Assembly (NCBI GenBank): GCA_041736305.1
Contig: JBGSTX010000164.1
Location: forward strand, 1 to 35,448
DNA: 35,448 nt
Direction of reading: 5' to 3'
Source: Oligoflexus sp.
GTDB taxonomy: Bacteria > Bdellovibrionota_B > Oligoflexia > Oligoflexales > Oligoflexaceae
Shown piece by piece: positions 8,428 to 35,323 of the stretch. Both the position numbers and the translations under genes were made by a program. Numbering within the stretch: position 1 is the stretch's first letter; each line of letters begins with the position of its first letter. The notes under the pieces were generated by a model that searched no databases, had not been told where the DNA came from, and saw only the letters and a list, made by a program, of their open reading frames with translations.

Positions 8428-8457
8428 CCAAGAGTAACGAGCTGAAAGGAAGATGCG

Positions 8458-10887
8458 ATGGTCTCATCAGATGCTGCCCATAATTCGGTGCCCGCGACGC
8501 GCGCATCAGTGCTCGAGGCTCAACGCCTCAGCGTGCCTTCCTGGCCTTTGCAAAGCTCGGTTGCCGTCAATCCCTTCTGGAACTTGCGGGACCGTGACTT
8601 CACAGCTGTCATGACAGATCTGGCCCCTCTGCTTCACCGTCGTCTCTATATGCCTCTCGCTTACTATCTGGAACGCTATAGCCGCGGTTACATCAGCGAG
8701 GATGCGTTGGCGAGCGCCTTGGAGGCTGCTCAGAAGCGCCTGCCGACAGCTCCCGAGACGCTCGATGAGCTGATATGGAACTCGTCGAGCGATCGTGGTC
8801 TTCGCAAAGAAATACTGAGTTTTGCCGAATATCATGCGCAGAAAACAGGTGACTCGCTCCTCGCGCCACTGGTAATCGATGAGCTTTCCAAGTATGCCTC
8901 TGCCTACCTCGACCAGAACCAAGCGGTCGCCAAGTTCCCTTGGCAGTCTCAAGGTTTTTGGGAAGCCTGGTTGGCAGCACAAGGCTGCGATGATTCGATG
9001 GATGCAGCTGGTTTTAAGGGTTTTCAGGCCGCTGTAAGAGCTTTCCACTCTCTCACGGCTGAAGAGTTTATCGAGTTGGCGTTGAGCAAGTTCGCCTTCA
9101 AGTCGAGTCGAGACGAGACGCTTTATCTCTCGCGCCTGCTCGCGCTCCACCTCGGCTGGTCGACCCAGTTCAGTCTCGCCGCGTGGCCGACCACCCAAGA
9201 TAAGTCTAAGGCTGCTCGTCTTCTTGATTTTCTCGCCGTATGCCTCGCCTACGACTACGTTCTCGCCACGCTTGTGGCAGCTGATGAGTCCGAGGGAACT
9301 CTGGTCTGGAAGCGGAGTTTCGCAGCTATCAAATCGAGTCAGAGTTCGCGCGTGCACGAGTTCGAACTGCATCAGATCTGGCAGTACGCTCTGGAGCTTA
9401 GCTACCAACGCAGCGTGGCTTCATTGCTGGACCGACCGCTGCCTCCTCTGCATCCGCCTCGCTATCAGGTCGTGACCTGCATCGATGTGCGCTCGGAGCC
9501 TCTGCGCCGCGCCCTTGAGAAAAGATCCGAACAACTCAGCACCATCGGTTTTGCAGGCTTTTTTGGTCTGCCTTTCGCCTATCAAAAAATCGGTGACAAA
9601 ATCTCGCAAGGCCGTTTGCCTGTCCTGCTGTCGGCTGCTTTTACGGTGAACGAGAGAGCCAAGACATCTCACGGGAAGGCAGTGAAGTCGAAGAGTTTCA
9701 GTCAGGCCTTTTATAAGAATTTTAGGAAAGGGCCGCTCTCTTCTTTTCTATACGTCGAACTCTTTGGGCTCTTGGCCCTAGGGCGCTTAATTCGGAGAGT
9801 TGGACAGGCGGCTCTATCTCCTTTCACTCTGCGTGGCATGCCGCGGAGATTTGATGACCGCGATAGGGAGCCTGCAGTCGAGTCCAATTTGAATGGAGAA
9901 GAGCTTGCGGTCTACGCCGATCGTTTGGCCGGCGTGCTTCGGCACATGGGGCTGACGCGGGATTTTGCATCTCTCATCCTGATTACGGGCCATGGGAGTG
10001 CAACGGAGAATAACGCTTTTGCGTCGGCTCTCGATTGCGGTGCCTGCGGTGGGCATGCGGGCGATATCAATGCGCGCTTCCTCTGCAGCATGCTCAATCT
10101 GCCAGCGATACGTTCGGCACTCAAAAGTCGGGATATTGAGATTCCCGAATCCAGCTACTTCGTGCCAGCGATTCATGAAACCGTGACGGACACTATTTTT
10201 ATACTCGATAGGGATAAGATTCCAGCCGGCTGGAAGGCAGCGGTCGAAGAGCTGCAAAGCTTTATCGAGCGAGCCAGCCGCTCCGCGCAGAAGGAAAGGC
10301 AGAAAGCCCATTCGGTCTTTCTCGACAAGTCTGCCGAGCGCCGCAGCAAAAATTGGTCGGAGTTGCGGCCTGAATGGGGCCTCGCTGGCAACGCCTGTTT
10401 TATCGTAGCACCGCGGCAGTGGACCAGAGGTCTCAACTTTGCCGGCCGCTCTTTTCTGCACGATTACTGCTGGCAGGACGATAAGGAATTTAAGACTCTC
10501 GAGCTGATCCTGACCGCGCCGATGGTAGTGACCAACTGGATCAATCTGCAATATTACGCCTCGACAGTTGCCCCGGATGTTTACGGCTCGGGTAACAAGA
10601 TACTCCATAATCTCGTCAACGAAATGGGAGTTCTCGAAGGCAATGCCGGAGGACTGCGGGTGGGCCTGCCTTGGCAATCCGTTCACGATGGCGCGCAGTT
10701 TGTGCACGAACCTCTGCGCCTTTCGGTATTCATAGCGGCTCCTGAGCAGGCTATTGAAGGTATTGTAGTGCAGCACTCGGTGGTTCGCGAGTTAGTCGAC
10801 AACGGTTGGCTCTATATTCTGCGCATAGACGATGATACACGCCAGGTCACACGTCGGCTCCCCGGGGGCACCTACGAGCTCGTTTAG
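8458..10887 (+). CDS. dabA: DAB inorganic carbon transporter subunit (DUF2309/UPF0753, beta-carbonic-anhydrase-like Zn site)
   Basis: WPL..VAVNPF, CIDVRSE, GFAGFFG, GHGS, DCGACGG, RPEWGLA, NWINLQYY and HEPLRL motifs; AAAGGAAG RBS. Confidence 0.95.
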   Translation: MVSSDAAHNSVPATRASVLEAQRLSVPSWPLQSSVAVNPFWNLRDRDFTAVMTDLAPLLHRRLYMPLAYYLERYSRGYISEDALASALEAAQKRLPTAPETLDELIWNSSSDRGLRKEILSFAEYHAQKTGDSLLAPLVIDELSKYASAYLDQNQAVAKFPWQSQGFWEAWLAAQGCDDSMDAAGFKGFQAAVRAFHSLTAEEFIELALSKFAFKSSRDETLYLSRLLALHLGWSTQFSLAAWPTTQDKSKAARLLDFLAVCLAYDYVLATLVAADESEGTLVWKRSFAAIKSSQSSRVHEFELHQIWQYALELSYQRSVASLLDRPLPPLHPPRYQVVTCIDVRSEPLRRALEKRSEQLSTIGFAGFFGLPFAYQKIGDKISQGRLPVLLSAAFTVNERAKTSHGKAVKSKSFSQAFYKNFRKGPLSSFLYVELFGLLALGRLIRRVGQAALSPFTLRGMPRRFDDRDREPAVESNLNGEELAVYADRLAGVLRHMGLTRDFASLILITGHGSATENNAFASALDCGACGGHAGDINARFLCSMLNLPAIRSALKSRDIEIPESSYFVPAIHETVTDTIFILDRDKIPAGWKAAVEELQSFIERASRSAQKERQKAHSVFLDKSAERRSKNWSELRPEWGLAGNACFIVAPRQWTRGLNFAGRSFLHDYCWQDDKEFKTLELILTAPMVVTNWINLQYYASTVAPDVYGSGNKILHNLVNEMGVLEGNAGGLRVGLPWQSVHDGAQFVHEPLRLSVFIAAPEQAIEGIVVQHSVVRELVDNGWLYILRIDDDTRQVTRRLPGGTYELV

Positions 10888-23236: not shown

Positions 23237-23707
23237 TCAGTCTATCCTTGCTAAAGCCGCTGAAATGCTACTGAGAAAGTGTTCAAGAGGCGTGCGAGGC
23301 TGCTCATAGAGATAGGCAGCGATATCGTGAGCTTCTTGTACCGTTACACCAAGATCGGGCATGAGAGTCTCGGGAGAGATTACCTGTGGATCGGAAATCC
23401 AGCGGGCCATATTCTCGGGTGTGTTAGCCAAAATTCCCGCGATATAAATTTGTTCGGAGATATCGCTGAGCTGGGGGCCGACCCTACCACTAGCCTCCAT
23501 CACTCCTTCGATGACATGGCAAGCTCCACATCCATAATGCTCTATAGATAATCTTCCGCGCTCTTTATCCCCTAGAGGCGCATAGCGGCGAGGCTCGGCC
23601 GGATGACGTTGCAAGCCGAGCACAAACATGTTTCCCAGCATAAATAGCAGCGAAGCTACCCCTGAAGCAGCGATAATCCATAAGAATGAGTGAGAGAAAA
23701 TTTTCAA
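23237..23707 (-). CDS. Membrane-anchored monoheme c-type cytochrome
   Basis: N-terminal TM, CGACH, GRVGPQL, and WISDPQ...LMP with the axial Met. The TTG start is uncertain. Confidence 0.88.
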   Translation of the reverse strand: MKIFSHSFLWIIAASGVASLLFMLGNMFVLGLQRHPAEPRRYAPLGDKERGRLSIEHYGCGACHVIEGVMEASGRVGPQLSDISEQIYIAGILANTPENMARWISDPQVISPETLMPDLGVTVQEAHDIAAYLYEQPRTPLEHFLSSISAALARID

Positions 23708-23898
23708 GAGAGAGCCTCAGAAATGAGCCATCGTTCCATCGAATCAAAGTACAAATTTGCCTTTGGCACAAGGACAGAATCAATGTACCCGACAAGACAA
23801 AGGTTCAGATCGACACGAGGCTCAATTGCCCTAAGGAGATGCTCGTATTCTCTCCGGAGGCAATATCATTTACAAATCGTGAAGCCATAGGAGAGGTC

Positions 23899-24375
23899 AT
23901 GGATCGACGCCAGGTTCTTTCGCTGACGATAACGGGGACCGGATTAGTAGTCGCAGGAATAGTAGTGGTTCCTTCACTCATCAGCATTTTCTCGCCTGCA
24001 TTCGAAGCAAGGCCTGCTAGCCTCTGGCAGGCTGTGGCGGAGGTTGATAGGTTTAAGATCGGTGAAATGCAAAAAAGCTTGCTGTCTATTGCCTCTCCGG
24101 CCCGCGCTGATGAACTGAGCCAGAAGGCGATCTACGTCTGGCGACGTTCAGCAGATGAATTTGTTGTTTATTCCCGATCCTGCACTGATCTGGGCTGTCC
24201 CCTGGTATGGGATGCGGGAAGTGAATGGTTCTTCTGCCCCTGTCACGGGGGCATTTTCGACAAGGAAGGACAGCGTCGGGCAGGGCCTCCCAAGCTTCCT
24301 ATGTGGCGCTATGAAAGCCGTATTGAAAATGGTGTTCTGGAGATCAATCTGAGATCCGTTCCTCCCATGGTCTAA
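23899..24375 (+). CDS. qcrA: Rieske [2Fe-2S] subunit of a Rieske/cytochrome b complex, with a variant box I
   Basis: ATG 23899 after AGGAGAGG; Tat signal DRRQVL; box I CTDLGC; box II CPCHGG; GPP motif. Confidence 0.9.
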   Translation: MDRRQVLSLTITGTGLVVAGIVVVPSLISIFSPAFEARPASLWQAVAEVDRFKIGEMQKSLLSIASPARADELSQKAIYVWRRSADEFVVYSRSCTDLGCPLVWDAGSEWFFCPCHGGIFDKEGQRRAGPPKLPMWRYESRIENGVLEINLRSVPPMV

Positions 24376-24390
24376 GCATTGGAAGACGAA

Positions 24391-25839
24391 ATGGCTCAAG
24401 ACGAAAAAGACGAAGGATTGCCTGAAGGTCACAGGGGAATACGGTCCTGGATCATCAAGCGTTTTGCCTTGAAGCCCATTGCCGATCGAGCCCTTTTTCG
24501 CAGAGTTCCCAACGCGCGCTGGTATTACGGGGATGGGGCAGCGCTCCTCCTTCTTTTTGGTATCCTTTTAATCACCGGAGCCTTTTTATCACTGATGTAT
24601 TCGCCGGCCCCCGCGACAGCCTATGAGAGCGTGCGGGCGATCACAGAGCAGCACAAGCTAGGCTGGTTCGTGCGAGCCCTCCACTACTGGTCGGCTGGTA
24701 TGATGGTTGTCGTTCTCTTGCATCACTTGCTGCGGCATATCCTACTCGGTGGCTACCTACCACCGCGGGAAGGCACTTGGATTGTCGGGGTATTGATGTT
24801 CATCCTAGTGATCGTCAATTCTTATCTGGGCTATACCTTACGCTGGGACGAGAGGGCTGTTTATGCCATCCGTGTCGCGCTCAACATGTTTTATCAGGTG
24901 CCATTCATCGGAGAGAGACTTGTCGTTTTTCTCCAGGGAGGCTGGGACATTGGCGTCACCACCCTCAGTCGCTTCTACTCCGTCCATGTAGTCTTTGTCC
25001 CTTTGCTGTTCGTCACATTTGTCGCCTATCATCTTTATCTCATCATTTATCATGGCGTGACGACCATACCCGAACGAATCGATCCGGTGGAAACAGCCGA
25101 AGACCAAAAGAAACTCTACGATCAGCTTAAGCATAGCAAAAAGCATGGGACTCAATTCTATCCTTATACGATGTTTGAATCTTGGGCTTTTTCGCTGGTG
25201 GTATTTGCCATAGTCCTGACGCTGACTCTAAGTTTCGGACCCGCAGAACTTTATCCCGAAGCAAATTTTATCGAGGACTCGCGTCCAATCGAGGAATGGT
25301 GGTGGCATTGGTACAGCGCTTTGATTGCCCATTTGCCGCCAGCCATAGCACCATATTTTTACTGGATGGCTCCTCTCGGCTTGATCATCCTTTTGCTCAC
25401 TTTGCCCTTGATTGATCACGGCGCGAATCGTGGATTGCGACATAGGCCTATCGCAGTTTTGTCAAGCGTCGCAGTCGTCGTGGGCATCTTAGCCCTAACA
25501 GGTCAACGCCTGCGTTCACCCTGGACGGCTTGGCCGCGGAGCGCATTGGCTCCACTGCCCCGCGACATTCAGCTCACAGAATCTGGACAGCGAGGCCATC
25601 AGCTTTTTTCGCAATACGGCTGTTTCAATTGCCATGCATTGGGGGGGCACGGCGCAGAAGTAGGACCCAATCTCACGGCCCTTGAGGTAAGGCTCTCAGC
25701 TGATGAACTAAAGCACTTCATCTTGCAGCCGCCCGAACATGCTGCGATGCCTGCCTATAAGAATCGGATTAGCGAAGCCGACCTCAGTTCTATAGTGGAT
25801 TTTGTTCTGGTGGCTCAAACTTTTCCGCGTCAATACTAA
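24391..25839 (+). CDS. qcrB: Cytochrome b (b6-like plus subunit IV) fused to a C-terminal cytochrome c
   Basis: RALHYW...HHLLR, PPRE.TW..G and RFYSVH...YH heme ligands; C-terminal CFNCH...GPNL...AMP. Start is ATG 24391 or TTG 24379. Confidence 0.92.
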   Translation: MAQDEKDEGLPEGHRGIRSWIIKRFALKPIADRALFRRVPNARWYYGDGAALLLLFGILLITGAFLSLMYSPAPATAYESVRAITEQHKLGWFVRALHYWSAGMMVVVLLHHLLRHILLGGYLPPREGTWIVGVLMFILVIVNSYLGYTLRWDERAVYAIRVALNMFYQVPFIGERLVVFLQGGWDIGVTTLSRFYSVHVVFVPLLFVTFVAYHLYLIIYHGVTTIPERIDPVETAEDQKKLYDQLKHSKKHGTQFYPYTMFESWAFSLVVFAIVLTLTLSFGPAELYPEANFIEDSRPIEEWWWHWYSALIAHLPPAIAPYFYWMAPLGLIILLLTLPLIDHGANRGLRHRPIAVLSSVAVVVGILALTGQRLRSPWTAWPRSALAPLPRDIQLTESGQRGHQLFSQYGCFNCHALGGHGAEVGPNLTALEVRLSADELKHFILQPPEHAAMPAYKNRISEADLSSIVDFVLVAQTFPRQY

Positions 25840-25852
25840 GGAGGGGGAATTC

Positions 25853-26872
25853 ATGCGCGGCAATTCTCATCCTCTTCTATCCCTTAAGGTGATTCCCGTT
25901 TCACTCGCATTCGCTAGCCTCGCTCATGCAGTACCCCAGAGTCTGCTTGAAAAGGTAGGGACTTCGGCACTCGATCCTGCCGGTCCCGCAGCGGAGAAGA
26001 TAGCGGCACTAACTTGGGTAATGATCGTGGGTTTCGGCCTCTTATTCGTATTCATAATGGGGCTGCTCATCATAGGGATAAAAAGAGGAGAGAATAGTGG
26101 AAAAAGTCAAGCGCCTCTGGGTGATCGTCGCTTTGTGGTGATTGGCGGACTGCTGATGCCACTAGTTATTCTGCTCTTGCTCCTGGTCTACACTCTGCTT
26201 CTGACGGCTTCGCTCGGACCCAAGGAGTCGCGCCTGAAGATTCGCGTCACCGGACATATGTGGTGGTGGGATGTTTACTATCCGGAAAGCAATCTGAGAA
26301 TTGCCAACGAGATCTATATTCCAGCCGGCGAGCCCATCCTTATCGAGCTGGTGTCAAAGGACGTTATTCATAGCTTCTGGGTGCCGAGCCTGGCCGGCAA
26401 GACTGATCTTGTTCCTGGAATCACCAACTATCAATGGCTCGAAGCTGACAGGCCCGGCACCTACCGCGCTCAGTGCGCAGAATTTTGCGGCCTGCAGCAT
26501 GCGCGCATGGCTCTCTATGTCGTGGCCCTGCCGCCGGAAGAATTTGCGAAGTGGCTGGCATCCAAGCAAAGATCGCAGCCTGTGCCCCAGGATCCCCGCA
26601 TGCAAGCGGGCCTTGCAACCTTTGTCAAGGCAGGTTGTGGGGAATGCCACACCATTCAAGGAACAGAAGCGAGGGGATTGATCGGCCCTGACCTGACCCA
26701 TGTGGGTAGTCGGCTCTCATTGGGAGCCGGGACGATTCCCAATAGTTATGGTTCAATGGCCGGATGGGTGGCCAATCCCCAGGCCCTGAAGCCTGGCAAC
26801 AAGATGCCCCCTTCCTATGTCGCCAGTCAGGACTACCACTCTCTCATCTCCTACCTCATGAGTCTTCAATGA
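25853..26872 (+). CDS. ctaC: Cytochrome c oxidase subunit II with a fused cytochrome c (caa3-like)
   Basis: ATG 25853 after AAGGAGG; GHMWWW; CuA motifs DVIHSFW and CAEFCGLQHARM; CGECH...KMP. Confidence 0.93.
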   Translation: MRGNSHPLLSLKVIPVSLAFASLAHAVPQSLLEKVGTSALDPAGPAAEKIAALTWVMIVGFGLLFVFIMGLLIIGIKRGENSGKSQAPLGDRRFVVIGGLLMPLVILLLLLVYTLLLTASLGPKESRLKIRVTGHMWWWDVYYPESNLRIANEIYIPAGEPILIELVSKDVIHSFWVPSLAGKTDLVPGITNYQWLEADRPGTYRAQCAEFCGLQHARMALYVVALPPEEFAKWLASKQRSQPVPQDPRMQAGLATFVKAGCGECHTIQGTEARGLIGPDLTHVGSRLSLGAGTIPNSYGSMAGWVANPQALKPGNKMPPSYVASQDYHSLISYLMSLQ

Positions 26873-29418
26873 TAGATAGCAAAGCCAATGCCGCCGGAGT
26901 CCGCTCAATAGGTGAATACCCTAGTGACGAGGAGCAAAAGGAGTTCGAAGCGACATGGAAGGCTCCCGAAGGAATTCGAGACTGGTTTGCGACAGTCAAC
27001 AATCAGCCTTTCGGCAACCGCTTTATGATTTCCTCGTTGGTCTTTTTTCTCATCGCCGGCATTATGGCTTTGATCATGCGCGTGCAGCTGGCAGTGCCGG
27101 ATCATGATGCGATAGGCCCCGATCTTTACAACAAGCTGTTTACCATGCACGGGGCCACCATGATGTTTCTGGTGGTATTGCCCTTTCTGGAAGGCATCGC
27201 CATCTATATTCTACCGCTGGTCGTTGGATCCCGGGAGATGGCCTTCCCTCGCATGAGTGCTTTCAGCTTCTGGGTGTTTTTTTCAGGGGCCCTAATCTTT
27301 TTCACAGGCTTTATTTTTAATGCGGTCCCTGATGCAGGATGGTTTGTCTATCCCCCTCTGTCACTTGAAAGGTATTCCGGTCTGGGCTTAGATTTCTTAT
27401 TGGTGGGCCTGGGCTTTATTGAGATAGCTGGAGTAGGGACGGGAATAGAAATTGTTACTACCATCCTAAAGTTTCGGGCGCCGGGTATGTCCCTCGGCAG
27501 GATGCCTCTCTTTGCATGGGCCTGGCTCGTCACGGGTGTCATGATCATTATAGCCTTTTCCACTTTGTTTGGAGCCACAGTCCTGATCGAGTTTGATCGG
27601 GCGATCGGTACCCGCTTTTTCGATCCTGAGGGGGGTGGTAATGTACTCCTTTGGCAGCATCTCTTCTGGTTCTTCGGTCACCCCGATGTCTATATTATGT
27701 TTATCCCCGCGACGGGCATCATCTCGATGATCATTCCTACTTTTGCCCGACGACCTATCGCTGCTTACTCCTATGTAGCCGTGGCGATTCTCCTCACGGG
27801 TTTTCTCAGCTTTGGTCTTTGGGTGCATCATATGTTTGCTACGGGCATCCCCGCTCTGGCCTCGGGCTTCTTTGTGGCTGCTAGTCTGATGATTGCTCTG
27901 GCAAGCGGAGTGCAAGTATTCGCTTGGATCGCTACGCTGTGGGGGAGTCGACCTGATATCAAGTCCCCCCTCCTTTTTGTGCTTGGGTTCCTCTGCATTT
28001 TCGTATTGGGGGGTATTACAGGTGTAATGGTTGCTGTTCTGCCCTTCGATTTGCAAGCGCATGATACTTATTTCGTGGTGGCACATTTTCACTATGTACT
28101 GATCGGTGGAGTGATTTTTCCTATCCTGGGTGGGCTCCACTACTGGCTGCCACTGATGACGGGATATTTGCCTAGTGAACGACTGGCTCGTTGGAGCTTC
28201 TGGCTGATTTTTATAGGCTTTAATCTAACGTTTTTTCCCATGCATGTCGCCGGGCTTCTAGGAATGTCCCGCCGCGTATATACCTATTCAGCAAGCCTAA
28301 ACGTTGGCTGGTACAATCTGCTTTCGAGCGTATCGTCCTTCATCTTAGGTGCCGGCTTTGTAATCGCCACAATCAACCTCTTGGGATCTCGCTATTTAGG
28401 GCGGAAGGCTGGTAAGAATCCATGGAACTCCGGAGCTTTGGAGTGGTCACTTATGGTCGATATGCCGAACTATGTGTTCCGCGCTCCGCCTGTGATTCTC
28501 GCTCGCGAACCCCTATGGCAGGCAGAGGCAGGAGGGGATAGCTACCTGAATCGTCTGGCCCGGCAGTTGACATCGAGGCCTTCTGCTTGGAGGGCAACCC
28601 TGATCACCGATGCGATTAGTGGTGAGCCGCAGGCCATACAAAAGGTATCGACGCCTTCCTACGTACCTATCACCGCCGCAATCGGACTCTTTATCATGTC
28701 GGTAGCAACACTTTTTAAAGCCTATATATTAGCCTTAGCTGCTCTTGTCTTTACCTTAGGCGTCGTTTGCTATTGGCTTTGGCCGGAGGAGAGGGAGCTT
28801 AAAAAAATGCGAGAGAGCGGCCTGGGTGAACTCACGGGATTGCCTCTCGAACCGACAGGAGCGCTCGCATCAGGTTGGTGGGCCATGGTCGGTACTTTAA
28901 CTGTTATCGGCACAATTTTCGGCGTCTTGTTTTATTCTTATTTTTATATCAGGATTTACTCTCCAAGCTGGCCTCAAGGTGGGATAGCATTACCGGAAAT
29001 TTGGCCTTCATCAATTTTCTATGCAGCGCTCTTGCTGGGGGCACTTAGTTTTCATTGGGCCGAGAAAAACTTTCAGAAGAACTCAGCGCGAGCAAGTCTG
29101 CTGGGAATATCGGGGAGTCTGCTGGCGGCGCTCATATTTCTTGCCTCGAGCATGTTTCACATCGTAGGGATAGGCTTTACGCCACAGGAAAACGCGTATG
29201 CCTCCCTCTTTCATACCATCACCTGGCATCTGGCGGCTCTCGTGCTGGGAGGCGCCATGTTTCTCGCGGCGCTACTTATCAAAACGATTCAATCGCAAGG
29301 GCAGCGAACTGGCTATCTGATCCTGCAGCTGCAGGTCACCGGCCTCTATTGGTACTTCACAGCAGTGGTTGGAGTCTTGTCTTTTGCCACTCTTTTCCTC
29401 TCACCCTACCTTTTGTAA
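26869..29418 (+). CDS. ctaD: Heme-copper oxidase subunit I fused to a subunit III-like domain
   Basis: ATG 26869 overlaps the subunit II stop (ATGA). FTMHG, WFFGHPDVY, WVHHMF and HDTYFVVAHFHY motifs; C-terminal NAYASLF...WH...LYWYF typical of subunit III. Confidence 0.93.
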   Translation: MIDSKANAAGVRSIGEYPSDEEQKEFEATWKAPEGIRDWFATVNNQPFGNRFMISSLVFFLIAGIMALIMRVQLAVPDHDAIGPDLYNKLFTMHGATMMFLVVLPFLEGIAIYILPLVVGSREMAFPRMSAFSFWVFFSGALIFFTGFIFNAVPDAGWFVYPPLSLERYSGLGLDFLLVGLGFIEIAGVGTGIEIVTTILKFRAPGMSLGRMPLFAWAWLVTGVMIIIAFSTLFGATVLIEFDRAIGTRFFDPEGGGNVLLWQHLFWFFGHPDVYIMFIPATGIISMIIPTFARRPIAAYSYVAVAILLTGFLSFGLWVHHMFATGIPALASGFFVAASLMIALASGVQVFAWIATLWGSRPDIKSPLLFVLGFLCIFVLGGITGVMVAVLPFDLQAHDTYFVVAHFHYVLIGGVIFPILGGLHYWLPLMTGYLPSERLARWSFWLIFIGFNLTFFPMHVAGLLGMSRRVYTYSASLNVGWYNLLSSVSSFILGAGFVIATINLLGSRYLGRKAGKNPWNSGALEWSLMVDMPNYVFRAPPVILAREPLWQAEAGGDSYLNRLARQLTSRPSAWRATLITDAISGEPQAIQKVSTPSYVPITAAIGLFIMSVATLFKAYILALAALVFTLGVVCYWLWPEERELKKMRESGLGELTGLPLEPTGALASGWWAMVGTLTVIGTIFGVLFYSYFYIRIYSPSWPQGGIALPEIWPSSIFYAALLLGALSFHWAEKNFQKNSARASLLGISGSLLAALIFLASSMFHIVGIGFTPQENAYASLFHTITWHLAALVLGGAMFLAALLIKTIQSQGQRTGYLILQLQVTGLYWYFTAVVGVLSFATLFLSPYLL

Positions 29419-29428
29419 GGAGAGCTGC

Positions 29429-29791
29429 TTGGAAAAGCACTTGGGCATCTGGTTTTGTTTGCTGGGTGGAGCCATAGCCTGGACCCTGCACCTATTGATC
29501 TGCTATGGACTTAGTGAGGCATTCTGCATCATGGGTCCGCCATCTATCTACTTTTTGGGCGTGAATTTGCTAGCTTACGTCTTAGGTCTAGTGACTCTCG
29601 TACTTTTGGGTATGGCCTTAGCAGCTGTGGTACTGTCTCGCCGTCAGGCATTAAGTCGTCCTGCAGCTGCGGGTGAGCAGTCCGACAGTTGGGCATTTAC
29701 AGCCCGAGCTGGATTCTTAGCTAATGTGGTGTTTAGTATAAGCATCATGGCTCAGTCTCTACCTATTTTTACCCTGCTTGGACGCTGTTGA
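29429..29791 (+). CDS. Small three-TM membrane protein in the oxidase operon
   Basis: TTG 29429 after AAGGAG; hydrophobic, with W..H....Y......C and a C-terminal Cys; tightly packed between ctaD and ctaG. Confidence 0.7.
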   Translation: MEKHLGIWFCLLGGAIAWTLHLLICYGLSEAFCIMGPPSIYFLGVNLLAYVLGLVTLVLLGMALAAVVLSRRQALSRPAAAGEQSDSWAFTARAGFLANVVFSISIMAQSLPIFTLLGRC

Positions 29792-29792
29792 G

Positions 29793-30698
29793 ATGAAGTC
29801 CAAGCACGGCGGATTTATCTTCTGCATTCTCGCCTCTGGTTTCGAGCAGGTGGCGACAGCTCATGCTTTGCAAACTGCCACGGGGACGCTGGACGGCTTC
29901 GCTCTTCTTTGGTTTTCATTGATTTTGGTACAGGTGGGACTTGTGACTCTGGCCTATACAAAAGGGTGGCGGCGATGGAGACTCAAACCTCGTACTCATA
30001 GCGTCGGCTCGGAGCTGCAGCCCTTTTTCTTCGGACTGGGAGTGTTCTCACTGCTCTCGGCTTTGCTACCACCGATTGATACGCTGAGCGAAGAATTGGC
30101 CTCAGTGCACATGGTGCAGCATATGCTTCTGATGATGGTGGCTGCTCCTCTTCTCATCGTAGGTGCCTCGCCGCATTTTGTCCTTTTGGGTCTGCCTAGT
30201 AAATGGCGACGCCAAATTTGGGTATGGAGACGGTTTATGATCCGCTTGGGTAGGCCCCTCATGGGGCCGAGACGAGCTGGGACCATTGCAGGTCTTTATG
30301 CATGTATCCTTTGGCTTTGGCATCTGCCTCAGCTATATCAGGCGGCGCTTGAAAATCGCCTGCTTCATGGTCTGCAGCATGTGGCGTTTTTTGGTGGCGC
30401 TTACTTCTTCTGGCGTGTAGTCCTTAACCCGCGGCTTCACCTGCGCGTGAATCTAGGAACGGGGATCTTGTATCTCTTTGTTGCCTCCCTCCATTCGATG
30501 GCGCTAGGCGTCCTCATGGCGGTGGCACCCTCGGTTTGGTACAAGCCTTATATCAGCAGTAGCTGGAAGCATGGCCTGAGTGCGCTGGAGGACCAGCAGA
30601 TTGCTGGCTATATTATGTGGATGCCGGCGGGGATGACTTATGTTGTGGTCGCTGGTGCCTTGATGCTTGAAGTGCTTAGACGCTCAGAAAGCTCGTGA
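29793..30698 (+). CDS. ctaG: Caa3_CtaG cytochrome c oxidase assembly factor
   Basis: SVHMVQHMLLMMVAAPL, WLWHLP.LY, HGLQH and LEDQQIAGYIMWMP motifs. Confidence 0.92.
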   Translation: MKSKHGGFIFCILASGFEQVATAHALQTATGTLDGFALLWFSLILVQVGLVTLAYTKGWRRWRLKPRTHSVGSELQPFFFGLGVFSLLSALLPPIDTLSEELASVHMVQHMLLMMVAAPLLIVGASPHFVLLGLPSKWRRQIWVWRRFMIRLGRPLMGPRRAGTIAGLYACILWLWHLPQLYQAALENRLLHGLQHVAFFGGAYFFWRVVLNPRLHLRVNLGTGILYLFVASLHSMALGVLMAVAPSVWYKPYISSSWKHGLSALEDQQIAGYIMWMPAGMTYVVVAGALMLEVLRRSESS

Positions 30699-32287: not shown

Positions 32288-32614
32288 TCACTGCGCTTGG
32301 TCTTTGTATTCATCCAGCGATATCGTCGCTTTGACTTGAGTTTTTGCTCTGTAAGCTGCTCGTGCTAGGATATGGGATCCAATTGGAATCGTCCCGCCGA
32401 CAAAAAGGAGCACGAGCAAAATGTTGAAAGGAATTCCCTGCTCATGGCTTGACAGAACAAAAGCCAGAATCAGGAAGAAAAGACCTAAAGTGGCAGCCTT
32501 CGTCGGAGCATGAATTCGCATATAGAAATCTGGCAGCAGCCATAGACCCAGCGCTGCAATGAGCATAAAGACCACCCCAGCTGCCATAGCAATGAAAGCG
32601 AGAATCTCACTCAA
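32288..32614 (-). CDS. mrpG: Mrp Na+/H+ antiporter subunit G
   Basis: PDFYMRIHAPTKAATLG and SHILARAAY motifs. Confidence 0.93.
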   Translation of the reverse strand: MSEILAFIAMAAGVVFMLIAALGLWLLPDFYMRIHAPTKAATLGLFFLILAFVLSSHEQGIPFNILLVLLFVGGTIPIGSHILARAAYRAKTQVKATISLDEYKDQAQ

Positions 32615-32873
32615 GGATATTGCCCTCCGTATAAGCTGCTATCGAAAGTGTGCTAATAAAACCGAGAAGAGAAAGAACGAGGAGCACATCGATATAGTGG
32701 AAGGATCGCAACTGGATCGATTCCAGACAAATCAATCCCATGACAAGAAACACGAAACAATCAAAGCCGACAAGTCGATCAAACACGGTTGGACCTTTGA
32801 ATATTCTGCCGACGGCAAGGGCAATCCCTGCAATCAAAACCAGCATGAAAACCCAAACAAATTCCATCATCAT
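32607..32873 (-). CDS. mrpF: Mrp Na+/H+ antiporter subunit F
   Basis: RIFKGPTVFDRLVGFD and YIDVLLVLSLLGFIST motifs. Confidence 0.93.
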   Translation of the reverse strand: MMMEFVWVFMLVLIAGIALAVGRIFKGPTVFDRLVGFDCFVFLVMGLICLESIQLRSFHYIDVLLVLSLLGFISTLSIAAYTEGNILE

Positions 32874-33373
32874 GGTCTACCCTCGCTAGCTTGGTCCGAT
32901 TGAGTAGATTTCAACTTGGACATTCTACTAAGAAAAGTGCCAATTTCAGTTCTAATCTTATCGACATCCTCTCCATAGAGAGTGTGAACATATAAGCCAT
33001 GGCCATTTTTATCAGCATCCAAAGTCAAGCTTCCAGGTGTCAGAGATATCATATTTCCAAGCAAAACGGTCTGCGCCGGACTGAGGTCTCTGCAATCGAC
33101 TCGAAAAAAAGCGTGGGTGAACTTTGTACGACTCCATAGGATATCGCGAGCCAGCGAAATATTGGCTCTTAGCACGCTCAAAAAGAACAGCGCGGATATC
33201 TTGATCAAGTCTCTCATATGAGATGATGTTCCTGGTCTGGGATTCACCTTTTCACTCAGCCCGAGCGCGACAAAGCTCAGACCAAAACCGGTCAATAAGC
33301 CTGTCAGGGTGAAGTCATTCCTCATGAACATCCATATAACGGACAGTATCAAGTGCCAGTATAGCTTTCTCAT
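32870..33373 (-). CDS. mrpE: Mrp Na+/H+ antiporter subunit E
   Basis: RANISLA, NMISLTPGSL and LYVH motifs. Confidence 0.92.
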   Translation of the reverse strand: MRKLYWHLILSVIWMFMRNDFTLTGLLTGFGLSFVALGLSEKVNPRPGTSSHMRDLIKISALFFLSVLRANISLARDILWSRTKFTHAFFRVDCRDLSPAQTVLLGNMISLTPGSLTLDADKNGHGLYVHTLYGEDVDKIRTEIGTFLSRMSKLKSTQSDQASEGRP

Positions 33374-33884
33374 TGCCTGACCCCTTTCAGTCCACTCTTG
33401 TCCAGATCGAGGACTGCTGAGATATACTCATCAACAGTCAAAAGTCTCAATGAATATCGATGAAAATTTTCAAACAAAGGAATTGCCATGACGCCGATGC
33501 CTATTGAAATCGAAGCAAGAAGCAGCGCACCGATATACAGTCGATGAATCTTCGGCACGGGCCGCCAGACACTTTGAGCGGCATCGCCCCAATACGAAGT
33601 GCTCCAGATTTTTAGCATGGAGGCCAGCGTAAGAAAGCTGACCAGAATCGCGATTGTGCTGGTAATCCAAGCTTCATTCTGAAAACCTGCCATGATCAAA
33701 AATAGCTTGGCCCAAAACCCACTGAGTGGAGGCAAACCGGCCAGCGCCAGTGCCAGGATCAAGAAAGCTGTAGCAGCCGTAGGGTCTAGGCGCAAGACCC
33801 CTTGCGCTACACCCAGTTTGCCTGTTCCGGCGCGAAGTTCCAAGATTCCTACAGCCATGAATAGAGCCGATTTTACTACGATAT
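33370..33884 (-). pseudogene. mrpD: Mrp subunit D, C-terminal third only, cut by an IS
   Basis: IVVKSALF and LALAGLPPLSGFWAK motifs; the N-terminal part is replaced by IS sequence from 33885. Confidence 0.88.
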
Positions 33885-33904
33885 CTTGAGAGTCAGGAGT
33901 ATTG

Positions 33905-35323
33905 CTACGCACTTCGCTCACAATATTCCTGATTCATTGATACTTCCATCTTCTCTCGCAAGAATTTCTTGAAAGAAAGCGGGTCTTTCTTGCTCCAAAA
34001 ATATTCCAAATACGCTTTCTTCAAGGCTTCCGAGGTTACGGCTTCGCTAGGAGCGAGATCTTTCCTGATTGTCCTCATCCAGCCGCCGAAAGATTGCCAA
34101 ACCAAGTCAGTTTTCGTTATCGCGAGGTAATCGAGAAGTCCTTGAGCGATAGCGGCTAGGTTGACGAATACATGGTAAGCGTGCATCTTTTCTCGGACCT
34201 TAGCTCGGTATTCTTCTGTCGCTCTATGGAGATATTGGGGTCCGGTTCCTCTCGTGATTTTTGTCATGGCCTTCATCCAGAAGTGATAACCGAAGCCTCC
34301 GACTGTGTGAACAAAGGCTTTGAAAGACAGTTCGATTCCAAACCTCGCATTATAAAGCCGAATAGCCTCCGAGGGAGAAAGTTCCCAGTCATTTGTCATG
34401 AATATACATCTGCCGCGGGTAGGATGGTCGCTGAGGATAAATCGAACTTTTCCTTGGATCTGCCTCCACATCAAATCTATGACATAATACCTTATTTTTA
34501 AGTGTCCTTCGTCCCGAATGGGACTCTGAATTTCGATGAAATCGTTATATCTATTCTCGAATAGATTCCATATTTTTAGTTTCTTGCCGTATTTCTTGGG
34601 GCGGCCGCGTCCCTGCTTTTTCCCGTCTGGGATCGGATAATATCCAACGACGTTGTGCTTAACCCTCACGAGCATTGTCGCACCATGGGCGATCATTGAA
34701 CTGAAGAGTTTGGCTGAAGCGTAATAGGCGTCAGCCACCATGAGGAAGTTTTTCCCAGCTCCGTTCGTCATGTTATGAAACATTGCACTCATTTTATCAA
34801 GTAGGGTCCGTTCATCTCTATTTGAAAAGACGAGGCCCTCGTGAATGCGAGACCCTATCAATACCGATGTGATTTTTCCTCCCAAGCTTTCGACCATTAG
34901 GGCCAGCATCTGCATCGAATGCGCCATGACGAAGTCAGGCTTCGAATTGTTCGTCGAAGATTGGTGGGAAAGCTTAACAGAGGGCATTTTCCGACCCTCC
35001 TTGGGGGCTTTTATCCCGTCGCAAGCAAGGACAATGCGGCCATTGACTATCACTGGCGTGAATAGTCGCAGGCAAATTTTCAACCAAAGTTGGTTCAGAA
35101 CATCTAGTTTGACAGCTTGAGAGTGAAAGCTGTCAATCAGAGATTGATAGCAGTTGGGCCTGAGTCCGAACGCACGAATAAAACTTGTCACACCCGCAGA
35201 GTCGGATCGAACGCAAAATCCCAATACCGTCAAACATGCCCATTGAGCAGTCCTTAATCGAGAAAAAGCTGGTCTCAACTCAAAAAATGCTTGGATCAAA
35301 ATCGTGCAGAGATTAACATCCAT
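33905..35323 (-). CDS. DDE transposase (IS4 superfamily, IS701-like)
   Basis: LACDGIK, VADAYY, GRGRPKKYGKK and Y..R..IE..FK (YREK-like) motifs; intact 472 aa. Confidence 0.9.
   Translation of the reverse strand: MDVNLCTILIQAFFELRPAFSRLRTAQWACLTVLGFCVRSDSAGVTSFIRAFGLRPNCYQSLIDSFHSQAVKLDVLNQLWLKICLRLFTPVIVNGRIVLACDGIKAPKEGRKMPSVKLSHQSSTNNSKPDFVMAHSMQMLALMVESLGGKITSVLIGSRIHEGLVFSNRDERTLLDKMSAMFHNMTNGAGKNFLMVADAYYASAKLFSSMIAHGATMLVRVKHNVVGYYPIPDGKKQGRGRPKKYGKKLKIWNLFENRYNDFIEIQSPIRDEGHLKIRYYVIDLMWRQIQGKVRFILSDHPTRGRCIFMTNDWELSPSEAIRLYNARFGIELSFKAFVHTVGGFGYHFWMKAMTKITRGTGPQYLHRATEEYRAKVREKMHAYHVFVNLAAIAQGLLDYLAITKTDLVWQSFGGWMRTIRKDLAPSEAVTSEALKKAYLEYFWSKKDPLSFKKFLREKMEVSMNQEYCERSA

Follow-up and report, generated by a model that had tools for sequence, protein, structure and literature searches.

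The 35,448-nucleotide stretch of Oligoflexus sp. DNA analysed here (the window) was confirmed to carry, at positions 23237-30698, an intact operon encoding a respiratory branch from quinol to oxygen, together with a divergent cytochrome c gene. We consider it likely, with a probability of about 0.72, that this module is a functional and selectively maintained aerobic branch from menaquinol to O2, combining a Rieske protein of the Cys2-His-Asp type with a variant oxidase.

Open reading frames (ORFs) and Pfam searches gave the identical set of genes that an earlier reading of the DNA (the sequence-only reading) had proposed, in the order Rieske, cytochrome b-c fusion, CoxII-c, CoxI+III fusion, a protein with three hydrophobic stretches (3-TM protein) and CtaG. 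No ORF of the module contained an internal stop, and the gene junctions within the operon were 3 nt gaps or overlaps. On the forward strand, a Rieske-type iron-sulfur subunit of 158 aa (23899-24375; Pfam Rieske) is followed by cytochrome b with a C-terminal class I cytochrome c (24379-25839, the database gene call beginning at 24391; Pfam Cytochrome_B and Cytochrome_CBB3), oxidase subunit II with a C-terminal cytochrome c (25853-26872, open reading from 25802; Pfam COX2 and Cytochrom_C), oxidase subunit I with a subunit III-like C-terminus (849 aa, 26869-29418; Pfam COX1) and, after the 3-TM gene, the CuB assembly factor CtaG of the caa3 type (29778-30698, alternative start ATG at 29793; Pfam Caa3_CtaG, E 8e-48), which is syntenic in relatives from genomes and metagenome loci. 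A membrane-anchored monohaem cytochrome c of 156 aa is encoded on the reverse strand (23237-23707), its Pfam Cytochrom_C match (E 0.00089) falling just under the family cut-off. By the ORF coordinates, a divergent intergenic region of 191 bp (23708-23898) separates this gene from the operon, and a promoter and terminator scan gave no excess of sites over chance. The CxxCH motifs of the module are CGACH in the monohaem protein, CFNCH in the cytochrome b fusion and CGECH in CoxII-c. Motifs and alignments upheld the claimed retention of the haem b, haem c, CuA, CuB and haem a ligands, and alignments and coordinates did the same for the claimed replacements at the Rieske box I His, the PEWY motif, the K-channel Lys and the D-channel.

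The Rieske subunit begins with a Tat-like MxRR followed by a transmembrane anchor. Its box II (CPCH) is retained, and in box I (CTDLGC) the His is replaced by Asp97 (codon 24187-24189), the alignment counterpart of the CTHLGC His in the proteins of Thermus (1NYK/3FOU) and Chlorobaculum (8hn2). This Asp is shared by all 120 Rieske relatives. The family alignment revealed invariant C95, C100, C113 and C115, a nearly invariant D97 and H116 as the sole invariant His. All 16 Asp proteins among the best 150 of 4405 representative Rieske relatives took ranks within 1-22. In a maximum-likelihood tree of 73 rows, the product of a quick search rather than a finished careful run, the Asp proteins formed one clade of 27 (26 Asp and 1 His; SH-aLRT 98). 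As judged from the alignments, Asp in place of the cluster-binding His is fixed in a clade spanning several bacterial phyla, and Asp97 may be inferred to act as an iron-binding ligand of the cluster. Since the one protein with His (P0363, CTHLSC) is nested within the Asp clade, the box I position tolerates both residues, and Asp would not need to be mechanistically special. As the sequence-only reading had anticipated, a literature search found no published description of this variant, which has apparently not been studied before.

Cytochrome b consists of a b6-like N-terminal half fused to a subunit IV-like half. Its four haem-b His residues align with those of cytochrome b6, and a Gly occupies the position of the b6 Cys that we take to be the haem ci-binding residue. 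The Qo motif is EEWW (25291-25302) and corresponds in the alignment to Aquifex PEWY (6KLS), from which it departs at positions 1 and 4 only, Glu and Trp being retained. Among the cytochrome b relatives EEWW was found in 116/120 and EEWY in 3/120. The association of both variants was assessed in 80 metagenome loci, 33 of the EEWW family and 47 of a neighbouring APWF type. In the EEWW family, 29 of the 33 loci encode C-T-D-L-[GSA]-C and none encodes His, the other four beginning inside cytochrome b; on these contigs every Rieske gene adjoining an EEWW-type cytochrome b thus carries Asp (29/29). A Rieske gene was present in 35 of the 47 APWF-type loci, with His in 35/35 and Asp in 0/35. The Asp-Rieske and EEWW are strictly co-occurring traits of one clade, in which shared ancestry makes such counts overstate the number of independent events. 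Adjacent oxidase genes were found in 18 of the 33 loci of the EEWW family, and a further 5 gave partial evidence of them.

These observations bear on the possibility that the Rieske-like subunit lacks the canonical cluster or has a changed cofactor (the Fe-S cluster being absent, held by only three protein ligands or replaced by another metal site), so that quinol electrons would bypass a bifurcating Q cycle. The defining ligand is missing in all members but one, the Qo motif is altered at two positions, and the subunit scores 56.4 against the NCBIfam Rieske equivalog, far under its cut-off of 97.4. However, neither the box II His nor any of the four Cys (two cluster ligands, two in the disulfide) varies, the substitute is nearly always the metal-capable Asp rather than a random residue, and both b-haem sites as well as the Qo Glu and Trp are retained. 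Moreover, a Rieske fold was confidently predicted for the subunit (AlphaFold model, pLDDT 87.1), with Rieske proteins as the top PDB matches. We therefore regard a changed cofactor as unlikely, though it deserves more weight than any other alternative considered here.

In the oxidase half, the CuA motif H..CxExCGxxHxxM is present in CoxII, which scores above the NCBIfam CoxB cut-off. Comparison of the proton-channel residues revealed replacements in both subunits. In the K-channel, ASGVQVF aligns with PTGVKIF, and Gln349 (27913-27915) occupies the Lys position, as it does in 120/120 CoxI relatives. The transmembrane Glu of canonical subunit II, presumably the K-channel entrance, is Val in CoxII when aligned with the genome's own canonical CoxII. 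In the D-channel, the entry Asp is replaced by Glu123 (27235-27237), the Asn positions by Ile, Ser and Glu, and the top Glu by Asp273 in HPDVY (27685-27687); every named residue is altered and both channel ends remain acidic. The CoxI of the window additionally carries the family-specific Glu108, Glu185 and Glu194, found in 42/61, 56/61 and 43/61 of the Q-type sequences (those with Gln at the K position), respectively. All 11 K-type sequences carry Asn, Asp, Asn and Asn at the four tallied D-channel positions, and one branch with a support of 100 parts K-type from Q-type in the CoxI tree. Oxidase activity and proton pumping are only predicted, because residues essential in studied A-type enzymes are missing.

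The nonstandard state of both canonical proton channels, and a CoxI score just below the CtaD_CoxA equivalog cut-off (648.6 vs 670.75, NCBIfam), might point to a haem-copper enzyme that is not an O2 reductase, e.g., a NO reductase or another oxidoreductase. This is very improbable: the six His of CoxI (three for CuB among them, and both haem His) and the cross-linked Tyr are invariant in 120/120 relatives, as is the retention of CuA, the operon includes the gene of a CuB assembly factor, and the closest solved relatives are aa3 oxidases.

The sequence-only reading had described the changes as coordinated and had proposed a search for the co-occurrence of CTDLxC, EEWW, HPDVY and the Lys-to-Gln change. 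The pairing of CTDLxC with EEWW stood. The K-to-Gln exchange, however, marks a much larger A-type oxidase subfamily including many cultured Proteobacteria, and most genome loci of this Q-type subfamily had no Rieske/cytochrome b gene within about 8 kb. HPDVY and the D-channel-entry Asp-to-Glu exchange are confined to an Oligoflexus-like subclade, and HPDVY is, on the sequences compared, a recent subclade trait. A single coordinated event is therefore ruled out; judging by their distribution, Asp/EEWW, K-to-Gln and HPDVY arose separately at three depths.

For a functional branch from menaquinol to O2, the following route can be proposed. Electrons from quinol would pass to a Rieske-type 2Fe-2S cluster and to the two b haems of the cytochrome b-c fusion, whose fused c haem would reduce the membrane-anchored monohaem cytochrome c; from there they would reach the c domain of CoxII-c, CuA, haem a and the haem a3/CuB site of CoxI+III, the CuB of which CtaG would assemble. 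The quinol-oxidising half belongs to the monophyletic multi-phylum clade in which Asp takes the place of the first cluster His, the cluster being most likely ligated by Cys2-His-Asp. Asp and the ef-loop EEWW represent paired changes at the quinol-oxidation site, where Rieske and cytochrome b dock. In bc1 structures, the box II His hydrogen-bonds the Qo-site occupant; because this His is retained, quinol oxidation should still work. The CPCHGGxF context has Gly and Phe in place of the Ser and Tyr typical of high-potential Rieske proteins. The cluster potential would probably be lower, less pH-dependent and suited to menaquinol. This substrate is suggested by the CPCHGGxF context and by Oligoflexus tunisiensis, whose proteins are among the module orthologues and whose quinone is MK-7 in the available text of PMC5154148. 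The oxidase half belongs to a large A-family subfamily lacking the two canonical K-pathway residues, in which a pathway with extra membrane glutamates may replace the Asn-lined D pathway; in the subclade of the window the terminal acids are swapped as well (top Glu to Asp, entry Asp to Glu). The altered redox potential or ion coupling suggested by the sequence-only reading is plausible.

Synteny extends over the whole module in three congeneric genomes (L105, L106 and L107), where the divergent cytochrome c keeps its position with 53-60% identity, and, without this gene, in one genome of the same family (L108). At least 11 of the family's metagenome loci likewise contain a small separate cytochrome c (47-66% identity). 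Close orthologues were found in 3 of 13 other genomes of the genus and in 1 of 8 genomes from the family's other genera. In the L105-L107 comparison, six genes had dN/dS values of 0.02-0.16 and the 3-TM gene values of 0.22-0.30, all of them rough, as synonymous sites were saturated (dS >= 0.8, often not computable). With all of them well below 1, the module genes are under purifying selection. As expected, the relatives bear generic annotations only, and most score under the NCBIfam cut-offs.

One could suspect that a redundant operon has decayed, or that its unusual residues are private mutations or assembly errors, as the genome has other complete oxidases and the contig stems from a fragmented metagenome-assembled genome (MAG; 392 contigs, 92.7% complete). 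This explanation is refuted by the identical residues in 120/120 (Rieske), 116/120 (cytochrome b) and 120/120 (CoxI) relatives from many sources; intact ORFs, low dN/dS and retained synteny stand equally against it. The sequence-only reading was thus right in rejecting decay, the closest homologues sharing the noncanonical residues.

The genome also encodes a canonical caa3, a cbb3 and a bd oxidase as well as an ActD homologue, the sole component of alternative complex III searched for, and the module is therefore an accessory branch. A single cytochrome b gene was found, others being not found rather than proven absent in this incomplete MAG. Accessory distribution (3/13 and 1/8 genomes), canonical oxidases elsewhere and genes for a Cu/Zn superoxide dismutase, a PRC-barrel protein and Mrp antiporters within 14 kb could indicate a chain specialised for stress or dormancy, the role assigned to the module from its neighbourhood. 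The flanking genes are mixed, however: the immediate neighbours encode a Na/Ca exchanger and a YihY/BrkB-family protein, neither of which has a counterpart adjoining the module in L105-L108, and the metagenome loci, queried through module proteins, were not seen to share flank genes. This role is thus unsupported and we consider it improbable.

Actinobacterial bcc-aa3 (Mycobacterium smegmatis 6ADQ/6HWH, Corynebacterium glutamicum 7Q21), which provides some of the best solved matches to the CoxI and cytochrome b of the module, likewise leads from menaquinol to O2 with built-in c haems replacing a soluble carrier. It differs by a canonical Rieske box I and by Lys at the K position of CoxI. Its c haems are located on the dihaem QcrC, unlike those of the window on cytochrome b and CoxII. 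Physical association has been shown for bcc-aa3, whereas a supercomplex of our module may at most be inferred from gene linkage.

The best solved CoxI match was aa3-600 of B. subtilis (6KOB/6KOC, E 3e-125). Bacillus b6c (QcrABC) and caa3 (CtaCDEF, CtaG) share with the module a b6-like cytochrome b with cytochrome c on its C-terminal part, the CoxII-c fusion, a caa3-type CtaG and menaquinol as substrate; they have canonical residues in the Rieske protein, the Qo motif and the oxidase channels, and subunits I and III are not fused. Cytochrome b of Bacillus is a split protein with haem ci, unlike the single chain of the window with Gly at the b6 Cys position. The caa3 oxidase of Thermus thermophilus is of the A2 type: Tyr-Ser stands in for the Glu of helix VI and the K-channel has its Lys, in contrast to GHPDV, Gln and the extra glutamates in the window. 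Both fusions, I+III and II-cytochrome c, are common to the two enzymes (2YEV, E 1e-109). Sulfolobus SoxM differs in being archaeal and is not a close sequence relative. It employs caldariellaquinone, a blue copper protein and canonical Rieske ligands. Like the module, it has Rieske, cytochrome b and an I+III fusion oxidase in one cluster, as described in the available text of PMC8239418 and PMC4122944.

The nearest described grouping is probably that of cytochrome b fused to class I cytochrome c, published for Planctomycetes, Verrucomicrobia, Acidobacteria, Nitrospira and Firmicutes; the main text of that paper contains neither "EEW" nor an altered Rieske ligand, and its supplementary tables may list such sequences. 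The available text of papers by Degli Esposti and co-workers (PMC4013037, PMC8239418, bioRxiv 10.1101/2020.03.01.968255), which concern iron oxidisers, Proteobacteria and archaea, describes fused COX1-3, COX2-cytochrome c, clustered caa3_CtaG and COX1 without the K-channel Lys combined with a substitution of the COX2 transmembrane Glu. Loss of this Lys in some A-family oxidases is thus already published (bioRxiv 10.1101/2020.03.01.968255, PMC8239418); that text is silent on Gln in place of this Lys, on the extra glutamates and HPDVY, and on any link with a variant Rieske/cytochrome b.

Finally, the 3-TM protein (29369-29791, forward strand, start codon uncertain) had no Pfam or NCBIfam match, and its Atlas matches were "hypothetical protein" clusters only. 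It is kept after CoxI+III in L105-L108 with 34-43% identity, also occurs in most metagenome loci and is possibly an extra oxidase subunit.

The module lies between positions 23237 and 30698 of the window and comprises a small, divergently transcribed cytochrome c gene, a gap of 191 bp and then a series of tightly packed genes on the + strand. Pfam analysis of the latter predicted a Rieske protein, a cytochrome b with a C-terminal cytochrome c domain (24379-25839), a COX2 protein with a C-terminal cytochrome c domain (CoxII-c), a COX1 protein of 849 aa that is most closely related to proteins annotated as subunit I+III fusions (CoxI+III), and, as the last gene, a caa3-type CtaG. The ORF between CoxI+III and CtaG has three hydrophobic stretches and no Pfam assignment (3-TM protein), and its Atlas search returned "hypothetical protein" clusters only. 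CtaG matched Pfam PF09678 with 163.3 bits (gathering score 27.7) and remained below the cut-off of its NCBIfam equivalog (43.5, cut-off 279). None of the ORFs in the module is interrupted. A scan for promoters and terminators found fewer sites than, or no more than, shuffled sequences contained. Among the sequencing runs listed as containing the sequence there was no RNA run, and the single DNA run with a strong match may be the source sample itself and does not count as independent. The homologues closest to the module proteins bear the names Oligoflexus sp. or O. tunisiensis; the host genome is a MAG of 5.0 Mb in 392 contigs with 92.7% completeness.

Analysis of the Rieske protein revealed CTDLGC in box I instead of C-x-H-x-G-C, whereas CPCH in box II is kept. 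In HMMER alignments, the box I Asp stands opposite the ligand His of CTHLGC in the Rieske proteins of Thermus (1NYK/3FOU) and Chlorobaculum (8hn2) and in a Kuenenia Rieske protein. Ligation by two His and two Cys defines Rieske centres, and all current models of quinol oxidation and electron bifurcation in bc1 and b6f complexes assign a central part to the protonatable His ligands. Among 31 aligned members of the Rieske family, C95, C100, C113, C115 and H116 (box II and the disulfide pair) were invariant, and H116 was the sole invariant His of the alignment. The AlphaFold model of the protein had a pLDDT of 87.1, and its top Foldseek matches in the PDB were Rieske subunits (probability 1.00, TM-scores of 0.63-0.77 normalised by target). 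The score against the NCBIfam equivalog Rieske_proteo was 56.4, below the cut-off of 97.4. Because no other His is invariant and the fold is confidently predicted, the 2Fe-2S cluster is most likely held by Cys95 and Asp97 of box I together with Cys113 and His116 of box II, and the Cys100-Cys115 disulfide would be retained. In solved bc1 complexes, the box II His forms a hydrogen bond to the occupant of the Qo site. Since it is this His that is retained, proton-coupled quinol oxidation could therefore persist. The exchange of an imidazole for an anionic carboxylate should lower the cluster potential and drop one redox-linked pKa. High-potential Rieske proteins carry Ser and Tyr at the positions where Gly and Phe come after CPCH in the window protein, which points likewise to a lower potential.

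All of the 120 best Rieske relatives possessed the Asp (103 with CTDLGC, 3 with CSDLGC and 14 with CTDLSC). Source names among the relatives of the module proteins comprised Oligoflexus, Bacteriovoracaceae, Verrucomicrobia (including Phragmitibacter flavus), Desulfobulbaceae and Syntrophobacteraceae as well as, from Planctomycetota, Phycisphaerales and Ca. Laterigemmans. An exhaustive HMMER search of 1.84 billion representatives yielded 4405 Rieske relatives. The best 150 of these 4405 contained 16 sequences with Asp, all within ranks 1-22, 124 with His, 2 with other residues and 8 that were unparsed. In a quick and provisional IQ-TREE tree of 73 sequences, all 26 Asp sequences fell into one clade (SH-aLRT 98) on a long stem. 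Nested within this clade was the Rieske relative P0363, a single case with His (CTHLSC) and with Thr in place of another, otherwise nearly invariant Asp (D105 in the window protein). The provisional topology would fit one origin of the Asp and one reversion.

The N-terminal half of the cytochrome b is most like cytochrome b6, and all four His ligands of haems bL and bH, on helices B and D, align with those of b6; H98, H112, H199 and H214 were invariant in the cytochrome b alignment. The Cys that binds haem ci in b6 is replaced by Gly. Described variants of the Qo motif PEWY include PDWY, APWY and PPWF. In the window protein, the corresponding ef-loop residues EEWW align with PEWY of the Aquifex structure 6KLS, the central Glu-Trp being kept and the Pro and Tyr replaced. 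Among the best 120 cytochrome b relatives, 116 had EEWW and 3 had EEWY (1 was unparsed). Scores against the NCBIfam equivalogs were below the cut-offs for both cytochrome b6 (156.5, cut-off 325) and QcrB (98.9, cut-off 500). Among the NCBIfam models, the cytochrome b half matched best to ExtP, the b-type cytochrome of a selenite/tellurite reduction operon (162 bits, cut-off 290). A second cytochrome b was not found in the 92.7%-complete host MAG.

Metagenome contigs were scanned with the alignment of cytochrome b-c relatives, and all 80 returned loci were examined. The EEWW family accounted for 33 of them (44-54% identity): 30 with EEWW, 1 with EEWY and 2 that end before the motif. A Rieske gene was located upstream in 29 of these 33 loci, each time with C-T-D-L-[G/S/A]-C, and the remaining four contigs start inside cytochrome b. 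The other 47 loci belonged to a neighbouring cytochrome b type (26-40% identity) with APWF in 45; 35 of them had a Rieske gene, which encoded His every time. Thus, the co-occurrence of Asp-Rieske and EEWW that the sequence-only reading had proposed to test was found without exception in the 80 loci, whereas HPDVY of subunit I, included in the same proposal, does not go along: all 17 parsable CoxI of EEWW-family loci had HPEVY, and Gln at the K-channel Lys position. The two exchanges in the Qo motif (Pro to Glu and Tyr to Trp) flank the conserved Glu-Trp in the loop to which the Rieske head docks, which provides a rationale for the strict pairing with Asp. CoxI+III adjoined in 18 of the 33 EEWW-family loci, and 5 more end within CoxII or show the 3-TM gene; it is this gene linkage that points to a possible III-IV association at the module.

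In the oxidase, the six His residues of haem a, haem a3 and CuB and the His-linked Tyr of CoxI were invariant in 120/120 relatives, and the CuA motif of CoxII is intact. The position of the K-channel Lys in helix VIII is occupied by Gln349 in the window protein and by Gln in all 120 CoxI+III relatives. Moreover, the transmembrane Glu of CoxII, which presumably forms the K-channel entrance and is present in the host's own canonical CoxII, is replaced by Val. The D-pathway of A-family enzymes consists of an entry Asp, three Asn residues and either the helix VI Glu (A1, GHPEV) or Tyr-Ser (A2). In the window protein, the entry Asp is substituted by Glu, the Asn positions are occupied by Ile, Ser and Glu, and HPDVY (GHPDV) stands in place of the canonical HPEVY, so that Asp takes the position of the helix VI Glu. 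The host's canonical caa3, encoded on another contig, has GHPEVY, PTGVKIF and GARDVAFPRLN. Alignments to solved proteins and to the canonical proteins of the host confirmed the residue assignments of the sequence-only reading for the Rieske, Qo, K-channel and D-channel sites. HPDVY was found in 26 of the best 120 CoxI+III relatives, the 19 closest among them. The acids at the two ends of the D-pathway (top/entry) were Glu/Asp in 94, Asp/Glu in 18, Asp/Asp in 8 and Glu/Glu in none of the 120 close relatives, a co-variation that is an observation and not a statistical test because the sequences are kin. Against the NCBIfam models, CoxI scored below the cut-off of CtaD_CoxA (648.6, cut-off 670.75) and CoxII above that of CoxB (169.2, cut-off 147.7).

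CoxI proteins with Gln and with Lys at the K-channel position are referred to as Gln-type and Lys-type, respectively. The Gln-type family has a membrane-embedded signature of its own, consisting of Glu108 (120 of 120 close relatives, 42 of 61 members of the wider Gln group), Glu185 (120 of 120 and 56 of 61), Glu194 at a canonical Asn position (119 of 120 and 43 of 61), Glu241 (120 of 120 and 32 of 61) and His398 (119 of 120 and 54 of 61). The Lys-type CoxI kept Asn, Asp, Asn and Asn at the four tallied D-channel positions in 11/11 cases. The loss of both K-pathway residues, the acids at both ends of the D-type pathway and the additional glutamates suggest that all protons may enter through a rebuilt D-type route.

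The breadth of this oxidase family was assessed by a scan of the genome collection with CoxI+III, which yielded 80 loci of a broad Gln-type family; the close relatives came from a separate genome search. The 80 loci originated from many phyla, including the cultured Mesorhizobium, Paraburkholderia, Sphingomonas, Variovorax, Delftia, Achromobacter and Micromonospora. Of 76 extractable CoxI, 61 had Gln, 11 Lys and 4 Ala at the K position. In a FastTree phylogeny of 95 CoxI sequences, one branch (support 100) separated the 10 labelled Lys-type rows, including the host's canonical caa3, from the 61 labelled Gln-type sequences. The CoxI linked to the variant bc complex formed a clade of 22 (support 100), within which the HPDVY group was a subclade of 7 (support 100). 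The claim of coordinated changes was thus borne out for Asp-Rieske with EEWW but not for the module as a whole, as the features form three layers of different age and HPDVY and the K-less oxidase are separate. Four proteobacterial CoxI of the same scan (L064, L065, L067 and L071, from Hyphomicrobium, Sphingomonadaceae, Steroidobacteraceae and an alphaproteobacterium) had HPWVY, in which Trp replaces the helix VI Glu, and carried Ala instead of the K-channel Lys; they formed one clade (support 100) and kept the canonical D-entry Asp and Asn residues.

Within the fetched flanks, Rieske and cytochrome b genes occurred together in only 3 of the 80 CoxI+III loci, namely in one Oligoflexus MAG with the variant residues and in two Planctomycetota with canonical CTHLGC or CAHLGC. 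In the latter (L072, 4989-7084, and L076, 12308-14405), the canonical Rieske gene (CTHLGC and CAHLGC, respectively) and a cytochrome b-c fusion with Qo motifs PDWA and PEWP are located downstream of a Lys-type, unfused CoxI. Linkage of III and IV genes therefore has more than one origin.

Synteny of the entire module, divergent cytochrome c included, was observed in three congeneric genomes (53-68% identity per gene); one further genome from the family (34-51% identity) has the module but lacks the divergent cytochrome c beside it. A close orthologue was found in only 3 of 13 other genomes of the genus, and the distribution is therefore patchy. Nei-Gojobori dN/dS values among the three congeneric relatives were 0.02-0.16 for cytochrome c, Rieske, cytochrome b-c, CoxII-c, CoxI+III and CtaG and 0.22-0.30 for the 3-TM gene; these values are rough because synonymous sites are near saturation. 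All of them (0.02-0.30) are well under 1, whereas values near 1 would have spoken against the sequence-only reading. The changes at the mechanistic sites are also not private to the window, as Asp (120/120), EEWW (116/120) and Gln (120/120) are shared by relatives. Decay of the genes or sequencing errors are ruled out by this fixation in relatives together with the dN/dS values. By every sequence criterion, the module genes are functional.

The module most likely works by a mechanism in which electrons of menaquinol enter a Qo-type site to which both cytochrome b and the Rieske head contribute. For O. tunisiensis, PMC5154148 gives MK-7 as the quinone. One electron would pass to the 2Fe-2S cluster and the second to the two b haems. 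The cluster would reduce the c haem fused to cytochrome b, from which electrons would reach CuA, haem a and finally a3/CuB by way of the small anchored cytochrome c and the CoxII c domain. We give slightly less than even odds (about 0.45) to the full reading, namely that the module encodes a clade-wide, natural Cys2-His-Asp 2Fe-2S centre and an EEWW quinol site to match it, in a complex wired directly to an A-family oxidase without K-pathway, and that this oxidase takes up all its protons, or perhaps a different ion, by a rebuilt D-type pathway lined with glutamates. If true, the central chemistry of the Q cycle would have a second solution that has so far gone undescribed.

In a full-text literature search, CTDLGC, CTDLSC and HPDVY were not found, and the EEWW matches among those listed were unrelated. 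Literature searches on Rieske ligands and variant bc complexes did not find an Asp ligand, and the passages of PMC5600118 that were examined do not mention changes of the cluster ligands. The main text of PMC4122944 does not contain "EEW"; its supplementary tables may list EEWW sequences. The Rieske/Qo variant of this textbook enzyme is thus conserved and apparently has not been described before. Part of the K-less oxidase family, by contrast, is known already: Degli Esposti and co-workers described fused COX1-3, COX2-c fusions and caa3_CtaG clusters as well as A-family COX1 without the K-channel Lys together with a substitution of the COX2 Glu (PMC4013037, PMC8239418, bioRxiv 10.1101/2020.03.01.968255), and the supplementary tables may list Gln-type sequences. 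A widespread, selected His to Asp variant with a co-varying Qo loop would be a ready-made test of the ligand properties that the Q mechanism needs. A parallel question is how an A-type enzyme works without the K-pathway Lys and with the Asn of the D-pathway exchanged for glutamates. Orthologues are present under the NCBI names of the cultured, non-pathogenic species Oligoflexus tunisiensis and Phragmitibacter flavus; the ligand and channel questions are therefore directly testable at the bench.

Besides the canonical caa3, the host genome contains cytochrome bd and a strong homologue of ActD that points to an alternative complex III. The third PF00115 (COX1) match of the genome, a 743-aa ORF with a C-terminal CxxCH part (contig C277, 2639-4867, - strand), was read as a cbb3-type CcoN-CcoO fusion; a neighbouring ORF looks like a CcoI-type P-type ATPase. 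With caa3, cbb3 (as read), bd and the ActD homologue encoded elsewhere, the module is a further branch rather than the sole route to O2.

The stress role that had been proposed from the neighbouring genes found no support, since the Pfam set of the whole window is mixed (DabAB, Cu/Zn SOD, a PRC-barrel protein, a fatty-acid hydroxylase, a Na/Ca exchanger, YihY/BrkB and Mrp subunits) and the two immediate neighbours of the module are not beside it in relatives. At 32288-35323 (- strand), genes for Mrp/Mnh G, F and E are followed by an ORF that covers no more than the last 183 aa of a Proton_antipo_M (MrpD-like) protein, and this fragment adjoins a 472-aa DDE transposase ORF; the arrangement looks like an insertion sequence within an mrp operon. 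Finally, a Proton_antipo_M protein followed by a DabA protein (737 bits) at 6946-10887 (+ strand) constitutes a DabB/DabA-type inorganic carbon uptake pair.
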